A DNA stretch of 64,000 nt. Origin: an uncultured Bacilli bacterium. Lineage in GTDB: Bacteria; Bacillota_I; Bacilli_A; RFN20; CAG-826. Under the pieces are notes generated by a model. It ran no database searches. It was given only the letters and a program-made list of their open reading frames with translations, and was not told the DNA's origin. The first letter of the stretch is position 1, and each line of letters opens with the position of its first letter. Positions 1 through 25,681 of the stretch are shown piece after piece. The translations under genes were made by a program, and so were the position numbers. Location of the stretch: contig CAKUXV010000001.1 in the NCBI GenBank assembly GCA_934700895.1, positions 269,289 through 333,288 on the forward strand, in the 5' to 3' direction.

Positions 1-2250
1 TTTGAGCGATGTTGTCAGGAAAGGACGGAGGTATATCACGCTCCGTTTGAAAAAGCTCTTCGCAAGTTATACGAAACTGCGGTATTTGGCGATGACCAAG
101 AATGGGTGGATTATTTGAAAAAGCACGATAACGCCTCCATTTCTACTCCACACGTTCGTTTTGAGAAGTTTCGTTTCGACGATCTGGCAGAAACGCGTAC
201 CGACCGGGTTTTCTTCCTTCGCGGCGATGAATTTTCTTCTCGTGGCCTAAACCGAAACGACCTTGTATTTGTTTACTTGACTCAAGGCGCGGAAGAACAT
301 GACCGACAAGGGGAAATCGCTTTGAGGCTAGATAAAACTACGCGCGATGAGATGGTTATCGAACAGGTTTTATTGCCGTATGAAAGCAATCATATCGATG
401 AACTTGCTTATCCATCCTTGACCCAATATCAATTGCTATTGGCTTCTAGGGAACAATTGCCACACGCTTTTGTTGGTTCGGCAGGAACGGGAAAGACGAT
501 TCTATCTTTGAAAGAAACCCTGGATTTAGGGGACGTCAATAAGCGAGTCCTCTATTTGACCTATCAAAAAGACCTCAAGAATTTTGCCGAGAAGAAACTA
601 GAAGAGCTCCACGCGAGAAATGTGGAGACCCATACCTGGAAAACGTTATGCCGGTCTCTCAATCTTCCTCAATCAGATTGTATGGACGACAAAAGCGATT
701 TCGAACGTTTCTTCCGTCTTTTGGAAGAGAGGAACAATCGTCTATATCGCCGTGTAGCCAACTGTTTTGAAGGCAGCAAAGAAGATGATTGCCTCGTTTG
801 CTATTCCTTTTTCCGAGGGGTGTTAGAAGGCTTAAGCACCGATGTTAATCCAACATCCGATATTCTTTCCTTGCCCGTTTTCCTTGAACGCACGAAGAAG
901 GAAGAAGGCTTTAGTTTAGAACAAAAACAAGCCATCTACGAAGTCGGAAAGGCCTATGAAAACCATTTAAAGACACAAAAGAGAACGACGGATAACCGCC
1001 TCGCCCATGAATTGCTTGACCACGTCAATGATCTTGAAGTATATGACGCCATAGTCATCGATGAATACCAAGATCTTTCGGAGATTCAATTTGAAGCCGT
1101 GTGTTCGCTGCTCAATCACGAATATCCATTGGATTTGCTTAACCTCTATTTATATGGGGATGACAACCAAGCCATCAATCCAACGATTTTCGACGTGAAG
1201 GATGCGAAACGCATCGTAAAGAAATGCTTTGGAAACCAAGCAAACCTTTATGTCTCGAACCTAAATGACAGCTATCGAAGCGGGCCGAACCTCGTTGGAT
1301 ACATTAATGAAGTCTCCAAAATTCGTAGAAAAGCCATTGGGGCTCGCAATGCGGAAGTCGATTCCATTCAAGAAGTCACAAAGCGCGAGGATGAGGAAGA
1401 CGTCTTCGTTTCCCTGATTCAAAACAAGGAGAGTTTCGAAAAGCTTTTAAATGCAGTTTCCATTTCCAATCGCGATTGCGTGTTCTTGTTTCCCGATGCA
1501 AGGATGCGAAACGACTATCAAAGAAAATACCAAAAAAGGTATCCGGAATTTGTGGAACATTCATTCCTAAGCGTTGGGAATGCCAAAGGAAGAGAATGGG
1601 ATTCCTGTGTTCTTGTTGATTTCTTTTCCTCTTCAAAAAAGACTTTTGAATCCATGCTTGGAGAAGAAAGAAAAGGGAAGCACAGCACCTTGCATCGCAT
1701 GCTATTCAATCGGTACTACGTTGCCTTAACTAGAGCCAAGAATCGAATTGTGATTTTCGAATCGAACGCACATGGAATTATCGAAGAAGAATTGCTTGCA
1801 GGATTACGGAAACTCCAGTCTGAAAAAGAAGTGCTTTCCTACTTCAAAGGAACCATTGACCCAAGCCATTGGATGGAAGAAGGGGACAACCGTTTTAATC
1901 GAGACGAATTCGAAGATGCCATTCGGGCTTATTCTCGAGCTGGTGATTTCCAAGATGCAAAATCAAAAATCCAAATTTGCCGTCAATTCCTTTTGGCGTC
2001 TGAAAATGCGCTCCCTTATCCAGAAACGGTTCGGCTATATTTGAACCATACTAAATTACACTTGCTAGGAAACTACTATCAAGAACATGGGGAAGAAGAA
2101 AAGAAACAATTCCTTCGCTCCTTATTCACGGACCCTCCCGATCCGGCAATACTTTCTCAAGACTATATAACTTTGCTTCCAACCTTTACGGAAGCGGAGA
2201 AAAAATTCTATTTTTCCCGATTGCTAAAAGATTATAAATTGACATTATAA
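1..2250 (+). CDS. UvrD-like superfamily-1 DNA helicase with a C-terminal helical/TPR-like region. The 5' end is partial: the reading frame is open to position 1 and the listed ORF start at 106 is only the first in-frame GTG.
   Basis: Walker A GSAGTGKT, motif II DEYQDLS, motif III LYGDDNQAI, motif VI YVALTRAKNRIVIF. I translated positions 1-105 in the same frame and found no stop codon. Confidence 0.7.
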   Translation, partial: FERCCQERTEVYHAPFEKALRKLYETAVFGDDQEWVDYLKKHDNASISTPHVRFEKFRFDDLAETRTDRVFFLRGDEFSSRGLNRNDLVFVYLTQGAEEHDRQGEIALRLDKTTRDEMVIEQVLLPYESNHIDELAYPSLTQYQLLLASREQLPHAFVGSAGTGKTILSLKETLDLGDVNKRVLYLTYQKDLKNFAEKKLEELHARNVETHTWKTLCRSLNLPQSDCMDDKSDFERFFRLLEERNNRLYRRVANCFEGSKEDDCLVCYSFFRGVLEGLSTDVNPTSDILSLPVFLERTKKEEGFSLEQKQAIYEVGKAYENHLKTQKRTTDNRLAHELLDHVNDLEVYDAIVIDEYQDLSEIQFEAVCSLLNHEYPLDLLNLYLYGDDNQAINPTIFDVKDAKRIVKKCFGNQANLYVSNLNDSYRSGPNLVGYINEVSKIRRKAIGARNAEVDSIQEVTKREDEEDVFVSLIQNKESFEKLLNAVSISNRDCVFLFPDARMRNDYQRKYQKRYPEFVEHSFLSVGNAKGREWDSCVLVDFFSSSKKTFESMLGEERKGKHSTLHRMLFNRYYVALTRAKNRIVIFESNAHGIIEEELLAGLRKLQSEKEVLSYFKGTIDPSHWMEEGDNRFNRDEFEDAIRAYSRAGDFQDAKSKIQICRQFLLASENALPYPETVRLYLNHTKLHLLGNYYQEHGEEEKKQFLRSLFTDPPDPAILSQDYITLLPTFTEAEKKFYFSRLLKDYKLTL

Positions 2251-2266
2251 TAGGAGTAAATTTATT

Positions 2267-2725
2267 ATGAATGAAGTAGAAAAGAAAGAACCAATTAACG
2301 ATCTTAAAAAAGACTATGTTGATCGTGTCTTTTCCAAGGCTGTTGAAGGACTTGAAACATTAAGCGAATCCTATCAAAACATTTCCCAAATGGAGACAGA
2401 ACTTGTTACTAGAATTGAAAGGGTAGAGACTGCGTCATCTTCCATCCAGTCTCAAATTGAATCTCTAGGAAACGACGTAACTCGTTTTGAAAACGTGGTT
2501 TCGGAATTTCAAAAAACGCTTTCAAAGATTGAAGACCTTTCATCTAGTCTTAACAAAATCTTGGAAAAATTGTCGGTGGCCGATTTGCACGATTTAAGCA
2601 ATAAAATTGATGAGACAAAAGAAGCATTTGAACGCGAGGAAAAGAAAAACCGCAAAAACGAAGATAAAGTTGCAAAACCTGCTTCGAACTTCGGCAAAAA
2701 CCTAATTAAAAAGAAAAGAAGATAA
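2267..2725 (+). CDS. Hypothetical coiled-coil protein with a K/R-rich C-terminal tail.
   Basis: AGGAG ribosome-binding site 8 nt upstream. Heptad-like, E/K/L/S-rich sequence. No recognisable catalytic motif. Confidence 0.5.
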   Translation: MNEVEKKEPINDLKKDYVDRVFSKAVEGLETLSESYQNISQMETELVTRIERVETASSSIQSQIESLGNDVTRFENVVSEFQKTLSKIEDLSSSLNKILEKLSVADLHDLSNKIDETKEAFEREEKKNRKNEDKVAKPASNFGKNLIKKKRR

Positions 2726-2742
2726 TTGCAAAACCCCTATTT

Positions 2743-3684
2743 ATGACTAGAGATCCAGCTGTAGTTTCATACACCATGTCCCATATCCGTTCTAAGAACA
2801 CCGGAATAGAAAAAACTTTGCGCAAAGCCCTGACGGAAAAAGGGGTTCGATATCGTTTGTATTCTTCCAAGGTATTTGGTCATCCCGATATTGTTTTGCA
2901 GCGTTATCGTATTGCTATTTTTTGTGATTCTGAATTTTGGCATGGTTTTCACTTTGCGGAAAATAAAGCGAAGATCAAAACCAATACCTCATATTGGATT
3001 CCAAAGATAGAACGGAACATTGTCCGTGACCAAGAGGTGAACAAAGAGCTTCAAAGACAAGGCTATGAGATTTTGAGGTTCTGGGGGAATGAGATCGAAA
3101 AATCCCTGGATGAGGTCGTAGATAAAATCCTATTGGTTATTGAGAAAAGGAAATGGGTATATAACCAGATTCAATCCATTCATGAATTGACAACATTGGT
3201 ATATATAGAAAAAGAAGACTCGTATCTCATGCTTCATCGAGTAAAGAAAAAACATGATTTAAATCAGGGAAAATGGATTGGAGTAGGGGGCCATATTGAA
3301 AAAGGTGAAACAATACTAGATTGTGTTAAACGCGAGGTTAAAGAGGAAACTAGTTTAAATTTAACCAAGGCTAAATATTTGGGCAAAATCCATTTTTTAA
3401 ACGACGCATACCCGCCGGAAGTGATGTATTTGTATAAGGGGTTATCCTTTGAAGGAAATCTGACTGATTGCAATGAGGGCGATCTTCAATGGGTTAAGAA
3501 AAAAGATATTTTGAATTTGGAATTATGGGAAGGCGACCGTGTATTTTTGCCTTTGCTTGATTCGGATTTATCTGCTCCATTTACCTTGGATCTTGTTTAT
3601 AAAAATGGGAAACTTGCGGATGTAATAGGTCCATATTTCCCACCAAAAAATAAGAAGAAAACAAAGGCTAAAAAAGCCAATTAG
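2743..3684 (+). CDS. Fusion protein: N-terminal Vsr-like (very-short-patch-repair type) endonuclease domain and C-terminal NUDIX (MutT-like) hydrolase domain.
   Basis: N-terminus HIRSKNTGIEKTLRKAL...PDIVLQRYRIAIFCDSEFWHGF resembles the Vsr core. C-terminus has a Nudix box GGHIEKGETILDCVKREVKEETSL. Confidence 0.7.
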   Translation: MTRDPAVVSYTMSHIRSKNTGIEKTLRKALTEKGVRYRLYSSKVFGHPDIVLQRYRIAIFCDSEFWHGFHFAENKAKIKTNTSYWIPKIERNIVRDQEVNKELQRQGYEILRFWGNEIEKSLDEVVDKILLVIEKRKWVYNQIQSIHELTTLVYIEKEDSYLMLHRVKKKHDLNQGKWIGVGGHIEKGETILDCVKREVKEETSLNLTKAKYLGKIHFLNDAYPPEVMYLYKGLSFEGNLTDCNEGDLQWVKKKDILNLELWEGDRVFLPLLDSDLSAPFTLDLVYKNGKLADVIGPYFPPKNKKKTKAKKAN

Positions 3685-5069
3685 CGGAAGCGATATTTCC
3701 CTTTCCCTTTCCCTTTTATAGCCTTAATTTTTTTGCTGCTGCACAACTTTTTAACAATGGAAGTTGCGGTTGCCGGAGAGACTTGAGTTGCCTCCAAAAT
3801 TTCGGTTCGACCAAATACCTCATCTTTGTTTTTAACATAGAAGTCGCCTAGCGAGTCAGCAATTTCATCTTTAAAGAATGGGCGGATCGAATCTGCAAAT
3901 GCTTTAGATTCTTTGCTACGTTCTTTCTTTTCAATTGATCTTTGCAAACTCTTTTGCTCTTTGAAGGAAATACGAGCTTTTGTTACTTGGGTTTCCGTTT
4001 CTTCATGATATTCTGCAGCGGGTAGTTTCCTTTCACATAACGTTGTTTGAACGAACTCTAAGCCTTTTAGTGATCCCTTGCCGATTAAGAAAAAGTATTT
4101 TTCAATCAGAGGGTGTCTAGGATACGACTTCCCATTTTGCGCCCCGTAGCCCATTAAACCAGGGTTGGTTATTTCGTAATAGTCTTGTGAAACGGTCGTT
4201 AGCAAAGGTGACTTGGATCCGAAATCCATATTTTCCAAAGCGTTGATTAGCGTCTCTTCGAATACTTCGCAACTTTTTTGTTCTTTTAGGGCTGGAAGGG
4301 TGGACTCCGCAATTTTACTAACGAACTCAAAATAGGAAAAAAGCCCGCCTTCAAAGCTAGAATCGCCGGAAATAAACTCATTTAAGCCCTCGTATTTGCG
4401 ATTGAGAAGTCGTATTGCAAGAGAATGCCATGGATAGACGCTTGTAATCGAGCTATCGCTTCCAAACATCAAAAGTCCAGATTTCGTCGGATGAATTTGG
4501 CCATTAATCTCTTTTGCAGCTCTAATTTTTTGCAAGAAAACTGTATCCTTATCAAGAACCCATTGATTATGAAATTCATGGAAACTCTTCCGGTACTTTT
4601 TAAAGGAATCCGTCAATAATGCTGTGGCATCCAGAGATAAGATTGCCTTTGTATCTGAAGCAAATCCATCCGCGTTTTCTTCCATGGATTCGATAGCAGA
4701 TTCGCTGCAAATTTGGTTTCCAGTTTCCGTTCTTAGGAAGGCTCTGTTTCGATAAAAGATTGGTTTTTGTTCTGGCTTAGCTTCCGGAATGATTAACGTT
4801 AATCCGAGCTTCCCGGAGTCTTTTTCGTAAATGAAATTTTCTTGCGATAGAATATTTCTATTTATCTTTTGAGCATCGTTAAGAATATTTTGAATTTGAT
4901 CAACGATTTCATCAACATTTTTTAGCCCTTGGAACTTTTTACATCCTTCAATGACTTTATATCCGAATGTCAAAGTTCCACCATGTGAATTTGCAAGGGC
5001 AGAATACGTCTCACAAAACAATGGTTCCCATCGGAATTCTGTATCGATAAATACAATATTTTCTTCCAT
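3681..5069 (-). CDS. Putative DNA-binding regulator of the COG2865 type: N-terminal AlbA_2/Schlafen-like domain, central ATPase-like region, C-terminal winged HTH.
   Basis: N-terminal ...ALANSHGGTLTFGY... matches the AlbA_2 signature. The C-terminus is basic and HTH-like. It has the same architecture as the degraded copy at 25682-26993. Confidence 0.6.
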   Translation of the reverse strand: MEENIVFIDTEFRWEPLFCETYSALANSHGGTLTFGYKVIEGCKKFQGLKNVDEIVDQIQNILNDAQKINRNILSQENFIYEKDSGKLGLTLIIPEAKPEQKPIFYRNRAFLRTETGNQICSESAIESMEENADGFASDTKAILSLDATALLTDSFKKYRKSFHEFHNQWVLDKDTVFLQKIRAAKEINGQIHPTKSGLLMFGSDSSITSVYPWHSLAIRLLNRKYEGLNEFISGDSSFEGGLFSYFEFVSKIAESTLPALKEQKSCEVFEETLINALENMDFGSKSPLLTTVSQDYYEITNPGLMGYGAQNGKSYPRHPLIEKYFFLIGKGSLKGLEFVQTTLCERKLPAAEYHEETETQVTKARISFKEQKSLQRSIEKKERSKESKAFADSIRPFFKDEIADSLGDFYVKNKDEVFGRTEILEATQVSPATATSIVKKLCSSKKIKAIKGKGKGKYRFR

Positions 5070-5237: not shown

Positions 5238-5837
5238 ATGGATAACAAAATTAAAATTGATCCCAAGGAATTGGAAGAACTTGCCACGGCGTATGGCTTG
5301 CTTACACGTTGCATCGAAAAAGAGCACTTATTAGAACTTAATAATCCTGAAAAAGAGAAGCGAGTTTCCATTTTATATGTGACGGTTTTCATGCTTTCCA
5401 AACAGCTAGATGGCCCTTCTTGGCAGTCTGCTGTTTTGTCCTGTATGGATGTTCTGGCAAAACGGAAACTCAGACTCCAAAACGGTCGTGAAATTTCCTT
5501 CCCTGAATGGGACCCTTACGATTCGGCGCATTTGGGGTGTTACCCCATTTGCGATGCCGTCATAAACCTTTACGCCTGGAACCGCGCCGCGACCTGCCCC
5601 GACTTCCCTCCGGAAGATTATTTTGGCCCTATTTTTTCTTTGGCTGGATATGTTTTAGATGGCGTTAACCGCGGGTACTATGTCACGGATGATGCCATGA
5701 AGGAGTTGGAGAAGGGTTACCTTGGCCGCGTCTACGCTCAACTAGGCCACCCCGAAAAAGGCCGTTTCATGCTTCAAAAGCAATTGGAAGCATTATCTTC
5801 CATGATGGATCAATTCGTCGCTTCCCCGCAGGCTTAG
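5238..5837 (+). CDS. Hypothetical cytoplasmic protein.
   Basis: ORF with a GAGG ribosome-binding site. No recognisable motif. Confidence 0.45.
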   Translation: MDNKIKIDPKELEELATAYGLLTRCIEKEHLLELNNPEKEKRVSILYVTVFMLSKQLDGPSWQSAVLSCMDVLAKRKLRLQNGREISFPEWDPYDSAHLGCYPICDAVINLYAWNRAATCPDFPPEDYFGPIFSLAGYVLDGVNRGYYVTDDAMKELEKGYLGRVYAQLGHPEKGRFMLQKQLEALSSMMDQFVASPQA

Positions 5838-5909: not shown

Positions 5910-7241
5910 TTAGTCCAATTGGGCCCAGAAGGTATTGAAGGGCGGGACCTCGATCGTCTCGGCCTTGCGGTATTTCTCTACCAATTCCGGATTGACGTAT
6001 TTGGACGGAACATAGATTTCATAAACGTATTCGTTAAACCAAGCCGCGTCCATGATGTAGAAGCCTTTTTTGCCATTTTCGGTGCCCCAGGTATTTTCGA
6101 CTTTGTAACGATTGGGCTTTTCGTTTTCGTCAAGATTGACTCCAACGAAGGTCATCGCGTGAGAAACGCAGGCGGCACGATAATCCAATTTCTCGCCTTT
6201 GCTTAATTGAGGATGGGTTTGGAACAAATCATCCGGGCAGAAAATGTCTTTTACGAGATATCCTTTCTTGCGGAGCGATTCTTGGCAGACCTCGGCAGCG
6301 AACCACACGGGCTTTTTGTCTTTCAAGGCGGCGATTAAGGCAGCTTTCAATTCGTCAAGTTTGACATTAAAGAAACTGACTTCAGCGCCTTCCACGACGT
6401 TATTGACCAAATTGCAGCCGTATTTCACGTAGGGCTTGTAGTCTTGAATGGGCGCATGGCATAAGCAAACATAATCGTCTAAGTCTTCCTGAATATAGGT
6501 GGAGAAGAACTCCTGAGGCGTGCAGGCGGGTAAACGCTTGAAGTGATTGTCCTTGTCCGTATATTCGAAGGCGAATGACTTGGGCGGGACGCCGATAGAA
6601 GCGATGAGAATTCGGTGGATTTCCCCTAGCATTTTTTCCTTCATCTCGCGCAACTTATCCATGCCGAGGTTTTTGTTTTCGCGGAGGATTTTAAGATCGC
6701 TGGCAAGGATGAAGTGAAGGTAACGATTGAGTTCCGTCGTATCTTGGGAAACCGCCCCGTCTTCCATCAAGGAAGAAGGGATGACGCCGTATTTATGGAC
6801 CAAGTTCACGAACATCGTCCAATGTCCGCCGTCTTCAATCGCGCTATCGAGGAGGAAGCAAACTTCGCGGTCGTCTAGAGGCTTATCCAAACGTTCCAAA
6901 TTCTTTTCCAAGAAGAAGTTGGCTTTTTCGAGCTTATCGTAGAATTGAAGATACGCTTGGCTGAGCTCAATGTTTTTTACGCCGAATTTTTCAAATAAGA
7001 TGGTGCGAATGACGTTGAGGCCCGCAAACATCCAGCAACGTCCGGAGTGGCGTTGGTTCGTGATTTCGCCCGCATCGACTTCGATGGAGAAAACGTTCGG
7101 GTTTTCAGCGATTTTGGTGTCGTTGATGCAGCTGGCGACGATCCCGTTTTCGCGAATCGTACGCCGAGCAACGCGCAAAGAGGGGTCTTCTAAGTCTTTT
7201 TCAAAGTTTTGAAGGTCTAAGGGAGTAATAGAAGTGTTCAT
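5910..7241 (-). CDS. pepC: Aminopeptidase C (bleomycin-hydrolase family, peptidase C1B).
   Basis: Active-site region QRHSGRCWMFAGLNVIR. Length and N-terminus are typical of PepC. Confidence 0.85.
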   Translation of the reverse strand: MNTSITPLDLQNFEKDLEDPSLRVARRTIRENGIVASCINDTKIAENPNVFSIEVDAGEITNQRHSGRCWMFAGLNVIRTILFEKFGVKNIELSQAYLQFYDKLEKANFFLEKNLERLDKPLDDREVCFLLDSAIEDGGHWTMFVNLVHKYGVIPSSLMEDGAVSQDTTELNRYLHFILASDLKILRENKNLGMDKLREMKEKMLGEIHRILIASIGVPPKSFAFEYTDKDNHFKRLPACTPQEFFSTYIQEDLDDYVCLCHAPIQDYKPYVKYGCNLVNNVVEGAEVSFFNVKLDELKAALIAALKDKKPVWFAAEVCQESLRKKGYLVKDIFCPDDLFQTHPQLSKGEKLDYRAACVSHAMTFVGVNLDENEKPNRYKVENTWGTENGKKGFYIMDAAWFNEYVYEIYVPSKYVNPELVEKYRKAETIEVPPFNTFWAQLD

Positions 7242-7381: not shown

Positions 7382-8800
7382 ATGAAAGAAACGACTTCTT
7401 CGCCCTTGCCTTTGCTCCTAGGGTCTTTAACTTTGCTATTAGGCTCTTGCCGAATCAATCGGATTGACGGTTCTTCCGTATCCTTGCCCTCAACCTCTAG
7501 TTCCAGCCCCATCGGAGAGGAACAACCAACCCGTTGGGCTAAAATTCTTTTCGGAGCAGAAGCCCATACTTCCGTCGTCCCGATTCGGGCGGATGTTATC
7601 CAAACTTCCGAAATCCGCGTGGCTTCGATCGATGGGAGCCACAAATGCACCGGGGAATCGGGTCAAGCCCTCAAAATGGGCTCTGCCTCCGAGGCTGGCA
7701 CCCTTCAAATCGAGCTCTCGTCCTCGCTAAAGTGGTCTTCTGTTCGAGTTTTGGCCTTCCCCTATGAAGGAGAAGAACCCTGCAAATTAACGTTCAACCT
7801 TCGAGGCGAAGACTATACCTTGTCTTCCCGCTGCGCGGATTCGGAAGCGGCAAAAAAAGCCCTGAATCACCATGAGGACCTTTCTTGTTGGAGCGATGTC
7901 ACGGGGTTATACGGGAATGCCAATTCCTTTAGCTTAACGAGTCAAACCCGCGTTTACGTCGCGGGAATCGCCATCGAATTCATTGGTGGGACTAAGGAAG
8001 ATGGCACCGTTTCCAGTGATTCTTCTAATAGCAACTTCACTTCCAACAATACTTCCGCCAGTGAATCCACCTCCTCCGAGGATACGATTCCGGAAGAACC
8101 CTATACTCCCAGCGAACACCGAGACGAATGGGAAGTCTGGGCGAATGGGTATTACACCAATTATATTGATTTCTCCGCTTCGACGACCTTCCGTCTTTCT
8201 GCGACGGAATCCGAAGACGGTTTGACCGCGACCTGCTATTTCTATTCGGAAGAAAGAGAGCGTTTCGTGATTGGAGAAACTCTCCGCAAAGACGGTGTTT
8301 ATACGAATTCTAGCGAAGTCGCCCTTTATTACAACGCCTTCCGTGATTTGCCCAAGAATTATGGGTATTACACGAAGAAAAATACGAATGCCGTGATGAA
8401 GGAGCTTTACCCTCTCTACGGAGATTCCAGCCGCCTATATACGGACTATAGCAGGACCAATGGCTACGCCACCGTTCAGCCCGCTCTTAATATGCCGTCT
8501 GGATTTAAATATTACGAATTAGACCTCGCTTATGAGCCCAATAACGGCTATGCCTCCGCGGAAAAAGTCGATCGTTCTAGCGCTGGCAGAATCGTCATCT
8601 TCCCCTTTGGGACGAAGAATTATGGCGACGAACCTTATATCGTTAAAACCATCGACCATTACGCCCATTTCCGCGAATTCGCTAATTACTTGGACGGCTG
8701 GGGCGCCAATTACGATGGAGCCTCTAGCGATCTCGGCGATGGCAAAGTTTTGGGAGACTATTCCAAAGTCGGCCCCCTCGAAACGAGAACCGTCCGATAA
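7382..8800 (+). CDS. Exported lipoprotein with a Ser-rich linker and a C-terminal barnase-like (microbial RNase N1/T1/barnase family) ribonuclease domain. A TTG start at 7319 is an alternative.
   Basis: Signal peptide with lipobox LLGSC. The C-terminus aligns to the barnase catalytic region: YYELDL~WREADI, DRSSAGRIVIF~FRNSDRILY, KTIDHYAHF~KTTDHYQTF. Confidence 0.6.
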   Translation: MKETTSSPLPLLLGSLTLLLGSCRINRIDGSSVSLPSTSSSSPIGEEQPTRWAKILFGAEAHTSVVPIRADVIQTSEIRVASIDGSHKCTGESGQALKMGSASEAGTLQIELSSSLKWSSVRVLAFPYEGEEPCKLTFNLRGEDYTLSSRCADSEAAKKALNHHEDLSCWSDVTGLYGNANSFSLTSQTRVYVAGIAIEFIGGTKEDGTVSSDSSNSNFTSNNTSASESTSSEDTIPEEPYTPSEHRDEWEVWANGYYTNYIDFSASTTFRLSATESEDGLTATCYFYSEERERFVIGETLRKDGVYTNSSEVALYYNAFRDLPKNYGYYTKKNTNAVMKELYPLYGDSSRLYTDYSRTNGYATVQPALNMPSGFKYYELDLAYEPNNGYASAEKVDRSSAGRIVIFPFGTKNYGDEPYIVKTIDHYAHFREFANYLDGWGANYDGASSDLGDGKVLGDYSKVGPLETRTVR

Positions 8801-8859
8801 GTTTCATTAACTTTTATTCCCTATCGTGTATAATCCCTCTTGCTTCAGGAGGGATTTTT

Positions 8860-10602
8860 ATGTATTCCAATTCCCATTTGTCCGTTCTTCGCCAAGCCAT
8901 GAAGGAAAAAGGCATCAAGGCTTATTTGATGAAAACGGGCGACCCCCACAATTCGGAAGAGCCCGCTCCCTATTATTCGGCGGAACGTCGTTTCTTTTGC
9001 CCGTTTAGCGGCGATAACGCCTATGTGATCGTGACGGAAAAAGACGCGGTTTTGTTTAGCGATGGTCGCTTCATGTTATCGGCCAACGAGGAAATTAAGG
9101 GCACCCCCTATGCTTTTATCGAGCTTTATCGCCCTGGGAATCCTACTCCGGAAGAATATCTTCGCAAGAACGGTCTCTATCCGCTGGGCGTGGATTTTTC
9201 TTATCTTTCCCTCACTGATTTAAAAGAACTAAGAAAAGGGGGAGAAGTACAAGACGTTTCCTTCTTAAGTCTTATTGATGACCTCCCTTCCCTTTCTCAT
9301 GACCCCCTTTGGTCTTTTGATTCGCCCGCTTATCAAGACTATAACCACCTAGAGAAACTAGAAATCGTTCGGAGTGCCATGAAGGAAAAAGGCGTAGAAG
9401 CCCTTCTCATCACGACTTTGGACGACATCGCCTATTTGACCAACCTAAGGGGCAACGACCTCTTAAACACGCCTTTATTCTATTCCTACGCCTATTTGAC
9501 GCTTCATGAAGCCCATTTGTTCTTGGCTTCAGGGCGTTTGGAGCATCTAGAAGGCTATACCCTCCACGATTTAAGCGAAATCGCCCCTTTTGTTAAAGAA
9601 AGGGAAAACCTTTTGACTTGGGTGGATGAAAAGGAATGCAACGCTCGTTTGGCTTCATTGCTGCAAAATCCTTTTGACGCGGAAGTTCCTACCCGCTTAG
9701 AGAAGGCGGTCAAAGGACCCAAAGAAATCGAAAACATCATCTCCATCCAAGAAGAAGACGGGGTGGCCCTTTTGAAGTTCATCGATTTCCTCGATCGAGC
9801 AAAACCCGGCTTAACGGAATGGGAGGTTGTAGAAAAACTCCATGAATTCCGCGCGGAAGGGAAGCGTTTTCTCGACGAATCCTTCACCACGATTGCCGCG
9901 ATGGGCCCGAATGCTGCGATGATGCACTACGCCCCCACAGAGCAAATCTATGCCACCTGGGACGAAAATACGGTGGAATTGCTTTTAGATAGCGGAGGTC
10001 AGTATTTGGGAGGCACCACGGATACTACGAGAACCTTCTTGCTTGGCACCCCAAGCCCCGAATATATCCGCGATTACACCTTGACCCTTCGTTCGGTGAT
10101 CGCGCTTTCTGCCTGCGTTTTCCTCCAAGGGGCCAATGGCCAATGCATTGACATGATGGCAAGGGAAATCATGTGGAGGGAAGGGATGGACTATAAATGC
10201 GGAACCGGGCATGGCGTTGGCTATTTAAGCGTCGTCCACGAATCGCCCAACGGCTTCCGCTATCGTCCCGCCAAAGGCAAAAACGATGGAGCGAACATCG
10301 TTCCCGGCATGATCACGACCATCGAACCCGGCGTTTATAAGGCCAATAAGTACGGCATTCGCATCGAAAATAACCTTCTTTGCGTCCCCGCCTTCGTGAC
10401 TCCAGACGGCACATTCTACCGCTTCCAAACGATCACCTACGTTCCCATCGATACCAAAGCTTTGGATTTGACGTTATTAAGCGAAACGGATATCGCTTGG
10501 ATCAATGCCTATCATCAAGAGGTTTTTAAGCGCTTGTCGCCCAAGATAGAAGGGCGTCTGTTAGATGTTTTAAAAGAAAAGACGAAGCCCCTTTATCGAT
10601 AA
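8860..10602 (+). CDS. pepP: Xaa-Pro aminopeptidase (M24B; creatinase-like N-terminal domain plus M24 domain).
   Basis: GGAGGG ribosome-binding site. HGVGYLSVVHE motif and M24 metal-ligand pattern. About 580 aa. Confidence 0.85.
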   Translation: MYSNSHLSVLRQAMKEKGIKAYLMKTGDPHNSEEPAPYYSAERRFFCPFSGDNAYVIVTEKDAVLFSDGRFMLSANEEIKGTPYAFIELYRPGNPTPEEYLRKNGLYPLGVDFSYLSLTDLKELRKGGEVQDVSFLSLIDDLPSLSHDPLWSFDSPAYQDYNHLEKLEIVRSAMKEKGVEALLITTLDDIAYLTNLRGNDLLNTPLFYSYAYLTLHEAHLFLASGRLEHLEGYTLHDLSEIAPFVKERENLLTWVDEKECNARLASLLQNPFDAEVPTRLEKAVKGPKEIENIISIQEEDGVALLKFIDFLDRAKPGLTEWEVVEKLHEFRAEGKRFLDESFTTIAAMGPNAAMMHYAPTEQIYATWDENTVELLLDSGGQYLGGTTDTTRTFLLGTPSPEYIRDYTLTLRSVIALSACVFLQGANGQCIDMMAREIMWREGMDYKCGTGHGVGYLSVVHESPNGFRYRPAKGKNDGANIVPGMITTIEPGVYKANKYGIRIENNLLCVPAFVTPDGTFYRFQTITYVPIDTKALDLTLLSETDIAWINAYHQEVFKRLSPKIEGRLLDVLKEKTKPLYR

Positions 10603-11258: not shown

Positions 11259-11867
11259 ATGGATTGGAAGCTTATCGACGTTACCAAGGACACGAATCAT
11301 CGATTCCTCAATGAATACACCCTCCATTATGAGGTTTCTACGGGGAATGGAACTCGATCCTATGATTATTTCGTGGCTTCTAGAAACGAACCCGCTACGC
11401 TTCGCTCCATTACGCGCGATTATTCTCGCCCCGATGGGGTGGTGATGTGCCTTTATGAAATCGACCCAGCGACCCAAGAGGTTTCCGTTTTGTTCACCAA
11501 ACAATTCCGTCCTGCGTTAGGCGCCTATATGACTTCTTTCCCCGCAGGGCTGCTTGATCCCGAAGATCCCGATATGCTCGTTGCAGCTAAACGCGAGGCT
11601 AAAGAAGAAGCAGGGGTTGAAATCGATGACATAGAAATCCTTGCTCCGGCTTGCCCGACTTCCAGTGGGCTTTCCGATGAACTCGATGGTTTTATTTTGG
11701 CACGAATCGTGGGAAAAGAAGAAAAGAAGCTCGAGGATTTTGAGGATATTTCCACGCGCCTCGTCCCCTTGAAAGATGTCCCAGCGATGATGAAAGATCC
11801 CACCTATCATATCCCCCTTCCCGTCCGTCTTTGCCTCCATTACCTGTTAGAAAGATTTGCTCGATGA
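11259..11867 (+). CDS. NUDIX hydrolase (ADP-ribose pyrophosphatase-like).
   Basis: Nudix box GLLDPEDPDMLVAAKREAKEEAGV. Confidence 0.75.
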   Translation: MDWKLIDVTKDTNHRFLNEYTLHYEVSTGNGTRSYDYFVASRNEPATLRSITRDYSRPDGVVMCLYEIDPATQEVSVLFTKQFRPALGAYMTSFPAGLLDPEDPDMLVAAKREAKEEAGVEIDDIEILAPACPTSSGLSDELDGFILARIVGKEEKKLEDFEDISTRLVPLKDVPAMMKDPTYHIPLPVRLCLHYLLERFAR

Positions 11868-12601
11868 ATTCCCCTCAAAAAGATTTGCTGAAGAAGCGTC
11901 ATTATAATTTTGACCTCGGCCCCTTAGTCAAAGGGGTGCGTTTCTATTGGGTCCCGTTGATTTTGCTTCTGGTTCCCATCCTCTACATCATGGGATATGG
12001 GATGCGTTTTTATTCCGCGAAGCCCGAATATTTTTTGGGCGCGGACGAAGCGCTCGCCTCCTCCTTCAGCGGATATGAACTGGCCAAAATGGGGTTAGGA
12101 GGCCAAATCACCTTGGGCTTATGGGTTTTTAGCCTTGCATTACTGGTGGTTTCCGCGGTTTTGTTGTCCCTTTATCCGGTTTTCCGCGGCGTAAAATACT
12201 GCAACATCGTTTTTGGAATCCCCTGGGTTTTCTTTGCCGCTTGCAACACGGCCCTATTAATTACGATTGCCGAGCAAGTTCGTGGGCTCAATATCGCCTA
12301 TTACCAAGCGAAAGAACTTGATTTCCCCGAAGGGATGGGGCCCTATGGCTTAGCCAATATGACTTATTGGGTTTTGTTCGTCGCCCCCTTGGGTTTGATG
12401 CTTTGGTGGTGGGCTGTCAATTTCATCAATTTGTATTATTCCAAGAAAAAGAAAGCTTCAGGCGAGATTTCTCCCCAAGCGGAAAGCCAAATCCAGGGGG
12501 AGGAAGAGGAGAAGCAGCCCGAAGGCGAGCTGGTTCTTAGCCATGAAAATCATGGCGAGGATAGTCAAAGCAAGGAAAAGCAAGAAAAGAGAGAGGATTA
12601 A
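11864..12601 (+). CDS. Polytopic membrane protein with an acidic, low-complexity C-terminal tail.
   Basis: The ATG overlaps the upstream TGA (ATGA). Five or six hydrophobic helices. Confidence 0.5.
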   Translation: MNSPQKDLLKKRHYNFDLGPLVKGVRFYWVPLILLLVPILYIMGYGMRFYSAKPEYFLGADEALASSFSGYELAKMGLGGQITLGLWVFSLALLVVSAVLLSLYPVFRGVKYCNIVFGIPWVFFAACNTALLITIAEQVRGLNIAYYQAKELDFPEGMGPYGLANMTYWVLFVAPLGLMLWWWAVNFINLYYSKKKKASGEISPQAESQIQGEEEEKQPEGELVLSHENHGEDSQSKEKQEKRED

Positions 12602-13024
12602 GGTTTCTTCCCTCTTTTTTTCTTTGTCCTTGAAACGCTTCCCCATTAAATAGAATTCGTAAAAATAGCCGGGATATCCGAGGAGTAAAACAGCAATTGG
12701 GCCAATCGCGGGGCTTAAATCGCCGAGGAGGTTCATACTAGAAAGCACAATGCCAATCCCGGCCAAAACGGCTCCGCCCCCATCGATTTCCAAAAGCAAT
12801 TTCCATTTGCCAAAGATTTCAGGACGGGGGTCCTCTAAGCCGTAATGCTCAAAAAGGACATAAAGGGGATGCGCAGCCCCAAAGCAAAGAAAAGGAACCC
12901 AAAAAGGATATTGGGGGTCGGGGAAAGTGGCGCGCAAAAAAAGAAGGATCGTTCCACCCACCGCCAAAAGGAGCATCAGGGCAAATCCCAGGGGCGCATA
13001 TTCGTTATCCGTCTTCTTTTCCAT
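12458..13024 (-). CDS. Small membrane protein. Its 3' end overlaps the previous gene, so one of the two 3' ends may be mis-called.
   Basis: Hydrophobic helices. Converges on 11864-12601 and overlaps it by 144 nt. Confidence 0.4.
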   Translation of the reverse strand: MEKKTDNEYAPLGFALMLLLAVGGTILLFLRATFPDPQYPFWVPFLCFGAAHPLYVLFEHYGLEDPRPEIFGKWKLLLEIDGGGAVLAGIGIVLSSMNLLGDLSPAIGPIAVLLLGYPGYFYEFYLMGKRFKDKEKKREETLILSLFLLFLALTILAMIFMAKNQLAFGLLLLFLPLDLAFRLGRNLA

Positions 13025-13328
13025 TCCCCCATTATAAGACTTCTCCCGTAAAAATGGCTAGATGCCTTGCCTTCGGTGATTAAGGCTTAAGTCTGTGAAA
13101 ATTTACAAAAAAGTAAGTTTTTGAAATAATAGAAAATTTATCCGTTTAACGGAACTATTGTTTAAAAAAGTAAGAGAAATTTACCAAAATATTAAGAATG
13201 GAAAAAATGTTGATGCATGTATCTTGAAAGTCTAAAAAAACGCTTTATGATTATCAGGCTCATTGGTGACCGCACCCCTAGTCTCCAGTGAGTTTTTTCT
13301 TTCTAAGAACCCTGCTAGAATATGCCCT

Positions 13329-13757
13329 ATGGAAAAGAACATTCTCTCTCTTGATTTGGGAAAAGGATCCCTGGGAATCGCAATCTCCCGTTCGGGGATG
13401 CTTGTCTCCCTTCTTCCGAACCTGCGTTTCAAGGCCGGGGATTACGAAGAGGCGATCCGTCTTTTAGAAAAAGCGGTAGAAGGGGAGAAAATTGAGCATA
13501 TCTGCATCGGCCTTCCCCTCTTTCCTAGCGGAGACCCCTGCGAAATGACCCCCCTCGTGAAGGCGTTCATTCCTAAGGTGGAAGCCTTGTTTCCGGGAGT
13601 GAAAATCACCCCGGTAGACGAAAGAAATTCCACGGTAGAAGCTAGTGCCCTCCTCCATCAAGGCGGGGAAAGAAGCAAAAAGCAGCGGCATCATATCGAT
13701 TCCGCTGCCGCTGGAGTGATTTTGCAACGTTATTTGGCTTTGATTGGCCAAGACTAG
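13329..13757 (+). CDS. ruvX: Holliday-junction resolvase-like nuclease RuvX/YqgF.
   Basis: N-terminal ILSLDLGKGSLGIAIS motif. Preceded by an extended -10 TGCTAGAAT. Confidence 0.8.
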   Translation: MEKNILSLDLGKGSLGIAISRSGMLVSLLPNLRFKAGDYEEAIRLLEKAVEGEKIEHICIGLPLFPSGDPCEMTPLVKAFIPKVEALFPGVKITPVDERNSTVEASALLHQGGERSKKQRHHIDSAAAGVILQRYLALIGQD

Positions 13758-14614
13758 GCCTCCGAGGCCTTTTTTTCTTTTTCGGAAAGAATCGCACGAA
13801 GGTCGTCGCTGGTGAAATAGTAGGATTTGCCGCAGAACCCGCAATCCACGTGGATGGTCTTCCCCTCCTCAGCGATCTGAGCGAGCTCATCCGAAGGCAA
13901 TAAAGATAAGGTTTTTCGGCTTTTTTCTTGACTGCAAAGGCATTTCCATTCGATTTCTTTTTCGATTTTGGTTTCGTAATCCTTCTCACCAAATAGCATT
14001 CCAAGAATTTCCTCGAGGCTATTTTGATGGAAATCCAAGGCTTCGAGGCTTGGCATCTTATTCCAAGCTTCGCGAACCGCTTTCCGAGTGGAATCGTCGG
14101 CGAAGGGCAACGCCTGCGCCATATAGCCAAAAGCCCGATGTAGCGTTCCGTTTTGATGGAAAAAAACCCCGAGTTTGCAATAGGTTTCGATTTGTTCGCT
14201 TTGGGTAAAATATTCTTCCATCGCTTTTTCGAGGTTTCCCATATCGCAGAGGACGGAAGATTGATAAGGCTCTTTTAACCCTAAGTCTTTGGTAACGGTG
14301 AAAAGCCCAGGCCCTGATAGAATGGGGCTAGAAATCGAAGCGGAATAGGCTTTGACGTGGATGAAAGAATCCGCGTTGGCGATGAGGTCTTCTTTCCCGT
14401 CGAAACTTTTGAGTTCCGCGGATAAGTCGCATCCCTCCCCTTTCAAGGTGCTTCCTAGCATCGCGCTTAAAAGCATCAAGCCCCCGATTCCTTGGAGGGA
14501 GCCCGAGGAATAATGACGAAGTTTCACGGCTTCTTGGAGGGATTCCGTGCAGTCGCAGGCAAACCCCATCCACTCGCCCTTTTCGCCTAGATATCGAAGC
14601 AAACGGTCTTTCAT
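13754..14614 (-). CDS. hslO: Redox-regulated chaperone Hsp33.
   Basis: C-terminal zinc centre CLC...CGFC. About 290 aa. Confidence 0.8.
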   Translation of the reverse strand: MKDRLLRYLGEKGEWMGFACDCTESLQEAVKLRHYSSGSLQGIGGLMLLSAMLGSTLKGEGCDLSAELKSFDGKEDLIANADSFIHVKAYSASISSPILSGPGLFTVTKDLGLKEPYQSSVLCDMGNLEKAMEEYFTQSEQIETYCKLGVFFHQNGTLHRAFGYMAQALPFADDSTRKAVREAWNKMPSLEALDFHQNSLEEILGMLFGEKDYETKIEKEIEWKCLCSQEKSRKTLSLLPSDELAQIAEEGKTIHVDCGFCGKSYYFTSDDLRAILSEKEKKASEA

Positions 14615-14796
14615 GCCCCCATTCTAGACATCATCGCGAAAGAATCAAATAAAAAAGAAAAAGTGTCGATAAAGCGTAGATTCTATTTCAAATTTTAAAC
14701 AAAGTGCATTTTTTAAGAAGCAGTTCTATTTTCTTTCTTTGATTTTGTGTTATCGTAAGTTCAGGTAACATGGGGGCCGGGAAGGAGATTTTCAAA

Positions 14797-15384
14797 ATGG
14801 AAAAGAAACCGAGAAAAGAATACCGCAACGTCGAACGCTCGAAAGCGGCTTTAGCCGATGGGTTGGTTCGACTTTTGTTGAAGGGCAGGCCTTTTGCCAA
14901 AATTACCGTTTCGGAGCTTTGCGAAGAAGCGGGGGTGAACCGTGGAACCTTCTACAATCACTATTCGACGATTGATCAAATCGCGGATGCGGTGGAAAAC
15001 AAATACATGTCCGCCCTCAATGCACGGATGCAGGAATGCGATTTTGCTTCGTCGGAATCGATTTTAACGTTTTTCAACAACTTAAACGAATACCTGCAGG
15101 AACATCAAAACCAGGCCATGGCCATTTCCCGTTGCCTTCCCTCCCAATTCTTTGACGAAATCCGTCATCAACTTTGCAAGGCAACCTGCCTCGGACTCGA
15201 AAGCCGTTGCACGGATTACCCGAACGTGCATGAGATTTCTCGCGAAGTGGAAGTGGTTGCCCAAGGCATCGCCATCATCTACACGGAATTGATTCTTGGC
15301 AAGAGCGACATGACTTACAACGAAGCCGCCGCCGCTTGTTCGGGAACTTTGTTCCTTTTGTTCCAAAGCCTCGCTCAGCGATAA
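14797..15384 (+). CDS. TetR/AcrR-family transcriptional regulator.
   Basis: N-terminal HTH ITVSELCEEAGVNRGTFYNHY. GGAAGGAG ribosome-binding site before the ATG at 14797. Confidence 0.75.
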   Translation: MEKKPRKEYRNVERSKAALADGLVRLLLKGRPFAKITVSELCEEAGVNRGTFYNHYSTIDQIADAVENKYMSALNARMQECDFASSESILTFFNNLNEYLQEHQNQAMAISRCLPSQFFDEIRHQLCKATCLGLESRCTDYPNVHEISREVEVVAQGIAIIYTELILGKSDMTYNEAAAACSGTLFLLFQSLAQR

Positions 15385-16127
15385 AGACCGTATTCGATAA
15401 GGATCTTCCCTTTGCGGGAGGATCCTTTTTCTTTATAGAAGATGCCTTTTCCCTTTCCGCGGAAAGTTAGAATAGTCCCCTCTTCGACTTCCATGTCTTT
15501 TTGATGCAACACCGTCCCGCCCAAAAAGATTTTGCTCGCGTCGATAGCTTCTTGAGCTTGGGCGCGGGAGCAGGAGAACATCTCGCTGATGACGCCATCT
15601 AAGCGGTTGCTTGATATCGTCCCGTGACGAATTTCGATACGAGGAGAGAAATTCATCGAGGACAGGGGTACGAATTTGACCTGAATCTTATGGGGACCGA
15701 CTTCTTGCAAGGAGGCGATTTCTTCTTGAAGGGAAGGAAGACAAAAGGAATAGGCTTCCGCCCCTTCAACCAAGACGTCTCCTAAGGCGTCTCGTTCGAT
15801 CCCCTGGCCAAGCAACGCCCCTAACACCTGGCGGTGTTCTAATTTCTCCCCGAATTTTTTGCCGCTCGCCTCGATATGGAAGCAAAGTAGAAACGGTTGG
15901 ACATCAAAATCCTCCCCTTCTTTGAGGGGCTCGGGAAGGAAAATGGCCATTTTCCGTTCCGCGGATGGGTATCCGCCTGAAAGAAGAAAACGATTGGAAG
16001 GAAAATAATGAATTAATTCCCTCCACTCATCCTGCGTCAAAAAGCAAGAAGACAAAGGGCAGGACCATTGCTCACTGTGGAGATAAAGGTCGCGAAGATG
16101 TCCTAATAACGTCGAATCCAGTGCCAT
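15375..16127 (-). CDS. YlmH-like S4-domain RNA-binding protein.
   Basis: C-terminal S4 domain RLDGVISEMFSCSRAQAQEAIDASKIFLGGTV. The internal ATG was chosen to avoid a divergent overlap. Confidence 0.6.
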   Translation of the reverse strand: MALDSTLLGHLRDLYLHSEQWSCPLSSCFLTQDEWRELIHYFPSNRFLLSGGYPSAERKMAIFLPEPLKEGEDFDVQPFLLCFHIEASGKKFGEKLEHRQVLGALLGQGIERDALGDVLVEGAEAYSFCLPSLQEEIASLQEVGPHKIQVKFVPLSSMNFSPRIEIRHGTISSNRLDGVISEMFSCSRAQAQEAIDASKIFLGGTVLHQKDMEVEEGTILTFRGKGKGIFYKEKGSSRKGKILIEYGLYR

Positions 16128-16177
16128 AAACAAAGAAATTTTAACGGATGGGAAGGAAAATAGAATAAGATACCACC

Positions 16178-17383
16178 ATGACTGAATTGAACTTATCAAT
16201 CGCCGCGAAATGCCTCAACTGCAAATCTCCCCGCTGCGTCGCTTCTTGTCCCCTTCAAAATCGCATTCCCGAGATTCTTTCTTTATGGAAGAAAGGAAAG
16301 GAAGAAGAAGCTGCTAAGCTTCTCTATGCCCAAAATCCTTTTCCAGAATTGACCGCCCCTCTTTGTGACCATAACCGTCAATGCAAAGGGAATTGCGTCC
16401 TGAACGTTAAAGGGGATCCTGTGGATTTTCCTTCTGTGGAAAAAGAAATTGCCTCCCTATACCCACGCCCTTTGGACACGGCACCTAAAAACGGAAAGTC
16501 CATTGCCCTTGTGGGAGCCGGCCCCGCCAATTTATCTCTAGGTTATTATTTGCTCCAAAAAGGATATGAAGTCGCCTATTTTGAAAAAGAAAAGGGAATT
16601 GGAGGGGCGATTCGCTCTGGAATTCCCACCCTTCGTTTTCATAAATCGCCCCTATTCAAAATCCAAGAAGATTTAGAAAAAATGGGCGCCGTTTTCCATT
16701 TCCAAGTGACGATTGGTATCGATAAAACGGCGGAAAAACTGCAACACGAATTCGATGACGTGGTCCTAGGCGTTGGGGCCGAGAAAGAGAATCTCGCGGG
16801 TTTAGAAGTCGGGAATGGGGTAGAAAGCGGACTCGTCTTCCTTCGTCGTTTGAATCTAGAAAAAGGACGTTATTTGAACGAATATCGTGCATTGAAAAGC
16901 GATCATTTCGTTTGGGGCGGAGGCAATGTGGCTTTGGATTGCGCTCGCCTAGCCAAACGGCTGCTAGGCAAAGCCACGATTATCTATCGACGTTCCGAAG
17001 CCGAGATGCCCGCATCCAAAGAAGAAATTGAAGCGGCCAAAAAAGAAGGGGTTCGTTTCCTGTTCCTTGAAAACATCCGGAACGTAAAACGAGATGAAAA
17101 AGGAAAATTGGCCGAAATCGAAACCATCCAAATGGAATTAGGAGAACTTGATGCTTCCGGCCGCCCCTCCTGTCATGAAATCCCTGGCTCTTATTCAACG
17201 CGCCCCTGTGCCCATCTTATTCTGTGCTTAGGTGAAAAACCGACGTTTGAAGCACTGAAAATGGATCCCAATGCCTTGCCGGAACACGTCTATTTAAACG
17301 GGGACTGCGCTTATGGGGCTAAAAACATCGCTAAAGCAATCGCATCTGGCCGCGAACTCGCAAAAAAGATTTCGGGGAGATAA
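16178..17383 (+). CDS. GltD-family NAD(P)H-dependent Fe-S flavoprotein (glutamate-synthase small-subunit / PreT-like oxidoreductase).
   Basis: N-terminal Cys cluster CLNCKSPRCVASCP. Dinucleotide fold VGAGPANLSLGYYL and a second GG motif. Confidence 0.7.
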   Translation: MTELNLSIAAKCLNCKSPRCVASCPLQNRIPEILSLWKKGKEEEAAKLLYAQNPFPELTAPLCDHNRQCKGNCVLNVKGDPVDFPSVEKEIASLYPRPLDTAPKNGKSIALVGAGPANLSLGYYLLQKGYEVAYFEKEKGIGGAIRSGIPTLRFHKSPLFKIQEDLEKMGAVFHFQVTIGIDKTAEKLQHEFDDVVLGVGAEKENLAGLEVGNGVESGLVFLRRLNLEKGRYLNEYRALKSDHFVWGGGNVALDCARLAKRLLGKATIIYRRSEAEMPASKEEIEAAKKEGVRFLFLENIRNVKRDEKGKLAEIETIQMELGELDASGRPSCHEIPGSYSTRPCAHLILCLGEKPTFEALKMDPNALPEHVYLNGDCAYGAKNIAKAIASGRELAKKISGR

Positions 17384-17394
17384 ATTTTAAGAAA

Positions 17395-25635: not shown

Positions 25636-25681
25636 ACATGAACAAATTGTGGTTTATTTCTTATGGATGGTGGTTACGAAT

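Follow-up and report, generated by a model that had tools for sequence, protein, structure and literature searches.

What would a gut bacterium do with a barnase-like ribonuclease (RNase) fixed to the outside of its own membrane, with no inhibitor gene beside it? The question is raised by a gene at 7382..8800 (+ strand) in a 64,000-nucleotide stretch of DNA from an uncultured Bacilli bacterium (assembly GCA_934700895.1, contig CAKUXV010000001.1, positions 269,289 to 333,288), hereafter the window. An open reading frame (ORF) list shows the gene to be complete, encoding 472 amino acids followed by a stop. An earlier reading made from the letters and translations of the window (the sequence-only reading) described the product as a lipoprotein whose C-terminal part is an RNase domain of the barnase family, and saw three options for it: a nutritional surface RNase, a toxin whose immunity gene lies elsewhere, or a domain inactive in the cytoplasm. 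We consider it probable that the protein is a cell-surface endoribonuclease of the barnase/binase (N1/T1) superfamily, tethered as a lipoprotein outside the cytoplasmic membrane and digesting extracellular RNA for food in uncultured RFN20-like ('Candidatus Enteromonas'/'Mollicutes') gut Bacilli.

The C-terminal domain belongs to the barnase superfamily

Searched alone, the window protein had no Pfam or NCBIfam match at E≤1. Barnase was not among the matches when the protein was compared with the PDB by phmmer, and direct BLASTP comparison with barnase returned nothing. The barnase resemblance of the single sequence is below detection. Relatives were collected by an exhaustive phmmer search over 1.84 billion representative sequences, which yielded 128 at 50% clustering. 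Their common core maps to residues ~300-450 of the window protein. The domain core was extracted from 130 sequences, 37 of which were aligned (alignment A2), and the resulting profile matched barnase and binase chains in the PDB with E values of 2e-6 to 1e-5, covering barnase residues 5-107. Comparison of the same profile with barnase by hhalign gave a probability of 96.6% (E 5e-10). The curated profile PF00545 was matched at E≤1 by 28 of the 37 domain sequences (best 7e-9) and at E≤1e-3 by 42 of 101 full-length relatives (best 1e-7), and a local family hidden Markov model scored barnase at 6.8e-11 in a three-sequence test.

Structure prediction pointed the same way. An AlphaFold2 (AF2) model of the window RNase domain, built with A2 as its alignment, had a predicted local distance difference test (pLDDT) score of 89.6 and a predicted template modelling (pTM) score of 0.86. 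The model has the alpha+beta fold of the family, in which N-terminal helices lie against a beta-sheet of antiparallel strands. Its top Foldseek match in the PDB was barnase (1b2s_A; probability 1.00, TM score 0.60 on barnase length, 21% identity). The runner-up had a probability of 0.11, leaving barnase as the sole credible match.

Taken together, family profile, fold and active site place the RNase domain in the N1/T1/barnase superfamily (PF00545). Membership is shown transitively, because the window protein alone does not reach the curated threshold. The failed single-sequence searches, which by themselves might have been taken for a refutation, are overturned by the profile and structure evidence; at family level there is a profile match and the catalytic residues are conserved. 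That the product is a lipoprotein with an RNase domain of the barnase family at its C-terminal end, as the sequence-only reading had it, is borne out by the family profile (E ~2e-6), hhalign and Foldseek. The placement of the core in the last ~110 residues by that reading was right in homology and wrong in extent. The core occupies residues 309-432 (8306..8677; this and all further coordinates within the gene are on the + strand), as delimited by hhalign against barnase residues 6-108, the PDB profile match, PF00545 in relatives, AF2 and Foldseek, and residue conservation. It is not simply the last 110 residues, because a conserved 40-residue extension follows it.

Active-site residues are conserved across the family

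Alignment with barnase assigned a counterpart to each principal catalytic residue. E379 (in YYELDL) aligns with barnase E73 and is conserved in all 130 family domains, as is H426 (in KTIDHYAHF), the counterpart of H102. Two arginines in DRSSAGRIV, R398 and R403, align with barnase R83 and R87 and are conserved in 129 and 130 of the 130 domains, respectively. The same holds for Y427 (barnase Y103; 129/130) and D381 (barnase D75; 130/130), and by hhalign VALYYNAFRDLPKNY aligns with the first-helix motif VADYLQTYHKLPDNY of barnase. The codons, checked on the sequence, lie at 8516-8518 (E379), 8573-8575 (R398), 8588-8590 (R403) and 8657-8659 (H426). The catalytic Glu, Arg cluster and His had thus been placed correctly from the translation. 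The catalytic residues are invariant, and therefore an active enzyme is indicated.

The family also conserves residues for which barnase has no counterpart. These are R351 (130/130; codon 8432-8434), E432, the final residue of the core (130/130; codon 8675-8677), and N435 (128/130; codon 8684-8686). The last lies in a family-specific C-terminal extension (residues 433-472; 8678..8797), recognized from conservation and the domain model. In that AF2 model the extension contributes a strand at 145-150 (domain numbering), and the end of the core falls within another strand, 134-138; both lie around or beyond the end of barnase. The second helix of the domain is long (domain residues 40-54).

Ahead of the core is a small three-stranded beta unit (residues ~253-302; 8138..8287), seen in the full-length model, in the relative P0005 and in other members. 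Its strands (270-277, 280-289 and 294-302) were modelled with pLDDT ~57-61. The unit is kept in P0005 and many relatives, with the family consensus YRIxP...KTxTYY. The RNase domain is acidic, with an isoelectric point (pI) of 5.4, as against 8.9 for the basic barnase.

Export signal, linker and a companion N-terminal domain

The long frame reaching 8800 has two possible starts, TTG at 7319 and ATG at 7382. The 472-residue ATG form is the gene call in public assemblies, where protein P0001 is 99.8% identical to the window protein (one residue differs), and the start Met is identical in orthologues of 85-91% identity. No Shine-Dalgarno sequence was found ahead of the ATG at 7382. The encoded N-terminus, MKETTSSPLPLLLGSLTLLLGS directly followed by Cys23, is a hydrophobic signal that closes with a lipobox (residues 1-23; 7382..7450), read from the sequence as LLLGS before the predicted lipidation site Cys23. 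Judged by eye, L-G-S-C (in ...LTLLLGS before C23) follows the pattern [LVI][ASTVI][GAS]C, the Gly at -2 departing slightly from the strict consensus. The lipobox is kept in orthologues and in P0005 (LAGC). By this motif, the 472-residue protein is predicted to be a lipoprotein.

The N-terminal 350 residues had been described as a lipidated, Ser-rich tether. The lipobox agrees with this, as does a Ser/Thr-rich acidic linker of ~35 residues delimited by composition (residues ~205-240; 7994..8101), in which Ser and Thr make up 46% of residues 206-240 and the pI is 4.05. Linker length varies among orthologues, and in relatives, too, Ser-rich stretches of this kind come after the lipobox. For the whole region, the description as a tether is an oversimplification. 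The beta unit and a conserved, beta-rich domain of unknown function and ~165 residues also lie in it. The latter (residues 41-210; 7502..8011), delimited by iterated profile search, is present in 22 of 131 collected proteins, 18 of which are outside the window's four near-identical clusters (alignment A5). It had no sequence match in Pfam or the PDB. A full-length AF2 model was poor (pLDDT 48 overall, 30-56 over this domain), and Foldseek comparison of the domain from this low-confidence model gave weak matches to beta-sandwich folds resembling carbohydrate-binding modules (CBMs), which we take only as a hint. The Foldseek matches (Cry toxin domain III, CBMs and haemagglutinins) were not significant and were not used beyond the description 'beta-sandwich-like'.

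A sibling architecture was found in one of the 22 proteins, P0096, a metagenomic protein of 467 residues with the same signal, N-domain (profile E 1.4e-46) and Ser-rich linker as the window protein. In place of the RNase domain, its C-terminal end is Endonuclease_1 (PF04231, E 2e-67). The N-domain thus occurs with two nuclease domains that are not related to each other. Because P0096 carries it ahead of Endonuclease I, a classical secreted, digestive, non-specific nuclease, the N-domain is a reusable surface-nuclease module.

An unannotated family of uncultured gut Bacilli

The RNase family comprises at least 128 clusters at 50% identity, unannotated and recorded publicly as 'hypothetical protein'. 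Under a strict pattern, an obvious lipobox is present in about half of the members. Among the rest, most are fragments or have either a signal anchor or a lipobox that escapes the pattern. Members of ~200 residues that apparently have no signal reflect mis-called starts. In four loci (L010, L011, L012 and L014) the open frame extends upstream, via the Ser-rich linker, to a lipoprotein signal. The public calls there begin after the linker (L010 664..1728, L011 5641..6630, L012 5638..6627, L014 1007..2071), and in L012 the stretch ahead of the call figures as a gene of its own, 120 residues long and in another frame. Genetic code 4 was considered as the cause of the truncated members and rejected; the open frames are equal under codes 4 and 11, and the starts are mis-called.

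A Pfam scan of the 101 full-length relatives revealed few accessory domains. Big_2 was present in eight members and Big_3 in two, with Flg_new, Collagen, Big-like, T2SS-T3SS_pil_N, DDHD and Endonuclease_1 in one each. The same scan found no LXG, Rhs/YD, pre-toxin or other delivery domains. The RNase gene of the window is single-copy and chromosomal and lies inside a conserved syntenic housekeeping block. Phage and plasmid collections contained no copy of it, and an origin from either was rejected. Membership in a defence system was likewise rejected for want of a PADLOC match.

The taxonomic range is rough, since a genome-locus search with a narrow alignment yielded five loci; a profile search for homologous proteins gave mostly short fragments. 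The closest loci belong to uncultured Mollicutes bacterium UMGS153 (UQCQ01), Bacilli bacterium HGM10921 (CAAFZT01) and an uncultured Bacilli metagenome-assembled genome (MAG), and more distant ones to an uncultured Erysipelotrichaceae and another Bacilli MAG. Members of the 85-90% cluster are labelled by NCBI as 'hypothetical protein [Candidatus Enteromonas sp.]' or '[Mollicutes bacterium]'. Candidatus Enteromonas corresponds to GTDB genus UBA733 in the order RFN20, family CAG-826 (PMC8035907). RFN20 genomes measure 1.5-1.9 Mb and have TGA as a stop codon. Several pathways of amino-acid biosynthesis are missing from them, and most are without mraY and murG and without a complete peptidoglycan synthesis pathway (PMC7301438). 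Lipid-anchored surface enzymes fit cells of this type, and several further predicted lipoproteins are encoded in the window.

The absence of an adjacent inhibitor gene

The sequence-only reading had found no inhibitor gene next to the RNase gene, and had taken a neighbouring barstar to be the norm and its absence to be an anomaly. Its observation was confirmed by a Pfam scan of window ORFs and by phmmer searches with barstar. No Barstar domain (PF01337) was detected among 20 small or unannotated window ORFs (Pfam, E≤1), and phmmer returned nothing below E 1 among all ORFs of at least 45 residues in the window and 11 loci. Barstar was also absent from precomputed Pfam hits reaching ~10 kb past each window end, and from the neighbourhoods of six kinds of relatives. 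The genome-wide search for barstar homologues that had been suggested is thereby carried through, with a negative outcome, for ~80 kb, where the whole genome would measure some 1.5-1.9 Mb. No neighbour gene was conserved across distant loci.

The supposed norm did not hold up. An operon of RNase and inhibitor is 'not characteristic' of barnase (RBAM_031940) or binase (BPUM_3110) and is regarded as unique to balifase (PMC5021464). A barnase-like gene without an adjacent barstar is no anomaly. An adjacent inhibitor would not be needed, because the C-terminal catalytic domain of an exported precursor would fold outside the cell. It is possible that a cytoplasmic inhibitor is encoded elsewhere.

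One weak candidate partner was suggested by adjacency in more distant relatives. An orphan gene at 5238..5837 (+ strand) encodes a cytoplasmic protein of 199 residues that may not belong to the system at all. In loci L006 and L008 the RNase gene comes immediately after the orphan, with a stop-to-start gap of 2 nt in L008. The orphan is missing beside the RNase gene in L007, L010 and L011. In the window, pepC intervenes between the two genes on the opposite strand, and a terminator-like hairpin follows the orphan. Synteny extends over the entire region, so that the adjacency may be inherited, and all genes there are closely spaced. The protein had no match in Pfam, NCBIfam, PADLOC or the PDB, and a homologue search found two clusters of it. 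A relationship to barstar was rejected (hhalign probability 0.3%, no library match). As an inhibitor, the 199-residue protein is a low-probability candidate.

These data bear on a toxin role, in which the protein would be displayed at the surface against bacterial competitors and immunity would be encoded elsewhere, possibly by the 199-residue protein. With ~80 kb of the genome inspected for an inhibitor, such a role is conceivable, and barnase-fold domains are indeed cytotoxic once in the cytoplasm. The catalytic domain is C-terminal, its N-terminal module is found swapped onto Endonuclease_1 in P0096 in the manner of polymorphic toxins, and the orphan adjoins the RNase gene in L006 and L008. 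We nevertheless regard a toxin as unlikely. None of the 101 relatives has a delivery, translocation or pre-toxin domain, and neither barstar nor any other neighbour recurs across distant loci. The orphan is absent from three loci, is adjacent only inside a syntenic block, is parted from the RNase gene in the window, and does not resemble barstar. Moreover, the RNase domain is acidic where barnase is cationic, and the gene has a single copy and is absent from phage and plasmid records. The swap of C-terminal domains on a shared N-domain (RNase versus Endonuclease_1) was seen once, with no conserved downstream immunity-like gene.

A more far-reaching idea concerns how the cell stays safe. The window protein could be the founding member of a widespread group of surface-tethered barnase-type RNases, from gut Bacilli with a reduced wall or none, that do their own cells no harm even in the absence of barstar. 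They would be restrained either by a new type of cytoplasmic inhibitor (the 199-residue protein) or by family-specific elements (the invariant R351, E432 and N435, the N-terminal beta unit and the C-terminal extension) through which folding or activity is held back until the protein has been exported. We see an outside chance that this is so.

Proposed function and mechanism

Of the three options raised initially, a nutritional surface RNase is the best supported. This role is favoured because family architectures are of surface type only, with no toxin-delivery domains; because no neighbour is conserved across distant loci; because the sibling architecture carries Endonuclease I; and because some relatives are encoded close to a 5'-nucleotidase-type gene. 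In L011 (1..6630) and L012 (1..6627), two genes occur not far from the RNase gene, one of the Metallophos/5_nucleotid_C type and one for a surface protein of >1000 residues with Big_2 and OB-fold domains. A digestive role is further favoured because the gene is single-copy, chromosomal and not on phage or plasmid records.

We propose the following sequence of events. The precursor would be exported unfolded through Sec and, as its lipobox suggests, lipidated at Cys23. The beta-rich N-terminal domain and the Ser/Thr-rich linker would then keep the C-terminal enzyme off the membrane. Judging from fold and conservation, the barnase-fold core would cut extracellular RNA by acid-base transesterification, probably with a guanyl preference, E379 and H426 acting as the catalytic pair, R398 and R403 binding phosphate, and R351 perhaps replacing K27. 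By analogy, the resulting oligo- and mononucleotides, with 2',3'-cyclic phosphate or 3'-phosphate ends, would supply nucleotide and phosphate scavenging. This last step has two parallels. One is the induction of secreted Bacillus RNases, namely binase and balifase, under phosphate starvation (PMC5021464); the other is nucleotide salvage by membrane nuclease lipoproteins in mycoplasmas (PMC12115388, PMC11729948).

Several observations weigh against this proposal. The window protein by itself falls under every curated family threshold (Pfam, NCBIfam), and the Foldseek E value for barnase 1b2s_A is modest (8e-3). At the column of barnase K27 the window protein has Tyr330, and Lys is found in 33 of 102 relatives. 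The neighbouring window genes (pepC, pepP, His_Phos_1 and NUDIX) are not specific to nucleotide uptake. Finally, an N-terminal module common to different nuclease domains is also a trait of polymorphic toxins.

The first and third of these points raise the question of whether the fold is catalytically dead or repurposed, leaving an RNA-binding or adhesive surface protein. The absence of Lys at the K27 column and the scores below all curated thresholds would fit such a protein, as would the conserved features that barnase does not have (the C-terminal extension and the invariant E432 and N435). To our knowledge, however, Lys27 is specific to the barnase subfamily, where it stabilizes the transition state, and does not define the superfamily; RNase Sa and RNase T1 are active members that also have no K27 equivalent. 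In the window family, R351 may stand in for it, as its invariance suggests. The general base and general acid, like the two arginines that bind phosphate, show no or almost no variation among 130 divergent domains, which is unexpected for a dead enzyme. We therefore consider loss of catalysis highly improbable.

A different purpose can be imagined for an active enzyme. Rather than serving mainly nutrition, the RNase could be directed at the host or the community, degrading extracellular tRNA, miRNA or biofilm RNA as a colonization factor. The structural case for an active RNase exposed at the surface holds equally here. A mycoplasma membrane-associated nuclease is reported to promote host tRNA cleavage (PMC12848938), and the weak CBM-like folds of the N-domain model could mean surface or glycan binding. 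That model is unreliable over the N-domain, however, and mechanistically this alternative overlaps with nutritional digestion, differing in physiological purpose only. We judge it quite unlikely that colonization is the principal role, and continue to prefer digestion of extracellular RNA for food.

Comparison with known RNases and surface nucleases

With barnase, binase and balifase, which are secreted, guanyl-preferring RNases of Bacillus, the window protein shares the fold, the Glu general base, the His general acid, the two Arg residues and an N-terminal helix motif, V-A-x-Y...P-x-N-Y. All are exported, the window protein by its predicted signal. As with barnase and binase, the gene is not in an operon with an inhibitor gene (PMC5021464). 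The differences from barnase are considerable. The window protein is only ~21% identical to it and is predicted to be a membrane-tethered lipoprotein rather than a released enzyme, with its RNase domain embedded in a multidomain protein of 472 residues. The domain has a longer helix 2 and is extended at both ends, by the beta unit ahead of the core and by the conserved C-terminal stretch, with the invariant E432 and N435. It has no aligned K27, and is acidic rather than basic.

The closest parallels in cellular setting are mycoplasma membrane nucleases such as MnuA, Mhp379 and MAG_5040. Like them, the window protein would be a surface nuclease anchored as a lipoprotein, in its case in a reduced-genome, Mollicutes-related lineage. 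By analogy, the nucleotide-salvage role proposed for mycoplasma membrane nucleases (PMC12115388, PMC11729948) would be the same. The enzymes themselves differ. Those of mycoplasmas have SNase (TNASE_3), EEP or YqaJ folds and are metal-dependent and sugar-nonspecific, whereas by homology the window domain is expected to be a metal-independent, RNA-specific, cyclizing RNase. A review of mycoplasma nucleases describes SNase, EEP and YqaJ enzymes and mentions no barnase or ribonuclease-type enzyme.

Barnase-type toxin domains resemble the window protein in having a C-terminal barnase fold within a larger exported protein, with an N-terminal module common to another nuclease. Unlike barnase-barstar pairs, the window gene has no adjacent barstar or conserved neighbour; unlike polymorphic toxins, its family has no delivery domains and the gene is a single chromosomal copy in a syntenic housekeeping region. 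As far as could be tested, the RNase is not part of a barnase-barstar gene pair or a polymorphic toxin system. Endonuclease I lipoproteins of the P0096 type share the signal, the ~165-residue N-domain and the Ser-rich linker, and differ in having Endonuclease_1 (PF04231) as the catalytic domain in place of the barnase-like RNase. The enzyme class itself is known. What is new is a divergent, unannotated barnase subfamily with conserved additions of its own, lipid anchoring and a companion domain.

Neighbouring genes and other features of the window

Pfam matches agreed with the flanking genes named in the sequence-only reading, pepC upstream and pepP downstream. The former encodes an aminopeptidase C-like protein (5910..7241, - strand; Peptidase_C1_2, E 1.5e-138) and the latter an M24 Xaa-Pro aminopeptidase-like protein with Creatinase_N domains (8860..10602, + strand). 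Between the RNase gene and pepP (8807..8860), a scan by consensus match marked a terminator-like hairpin with an 11-bp stem and a T run (8832..8856, + strand). The AGGAGG Shine-Dalgarno sequence of pepP (ATG at 8860) sits within the 3' arm of this hairpin, and a promoter-like TTAACT-16-TATAAT overlaps the 5' arm. The count of terminator-like sites in the region was not above that in shuffled sequences. No Rfam families and no tRNAs were found within the window.

In L011 and L012, different toxin-antitoxin pairs occupy the same spot just upstream, PhdYeFM/ParE in L011 and NTP_transf_2/HepT in L012. Elsewhere in the window, a 462-residue SLFN_AlbA_2 protein (3681..5069, - strand) matches PADLOC PDC-S72 (E 6e-10). 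A similar gene at 25616..26993 (+ strand), split into three overlapping ORFs (SLFN_AlbA_2, HATPase_c_4 and winged-helix), has probably become a pseudogene through frameshifting. Predicted lipoprotein or anchored proteins of 1144 and 1251 residues (29285..32719 and 33884..37639, both - strand) and a lipoprotein of 507 residues (61174..62697, - strand) had no Pfam match at E≤1e-5. An Rnf-type electron transport cluster (RnfC_N, NQR2_RnfD_RnfE and two Rnf-Nqr subunits, with ApbE nearby) lies at ~54100..59900 (+ strand) and also at 11595..18575 of locus L016. Such clusters have been reported for related lineages. Past the right end of the window, L016 encodes a protein with a PvuRts1I-like/SRA domain, of the modified-cytosine restriction type (1942..2925), and several small unannotated genes also lie just beyond the window in this locus.

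Significance

This analysis assigns a putative function to more than 100 sequence clusters that are called hypothetical and missed by curated models. Gene callers often begin such genes past the Ser-rich linker, which hides the export signal. The family would add an RNA-specific enzyme of barnase type to the Mollicutes-like surface nucleases, known so far with SNase, EEP or YqaJ folds. It also hints at how uncultured RFN20-type gut bacteria may obtain nucleotides or phosphate, which is relevant to bringing them into culture.

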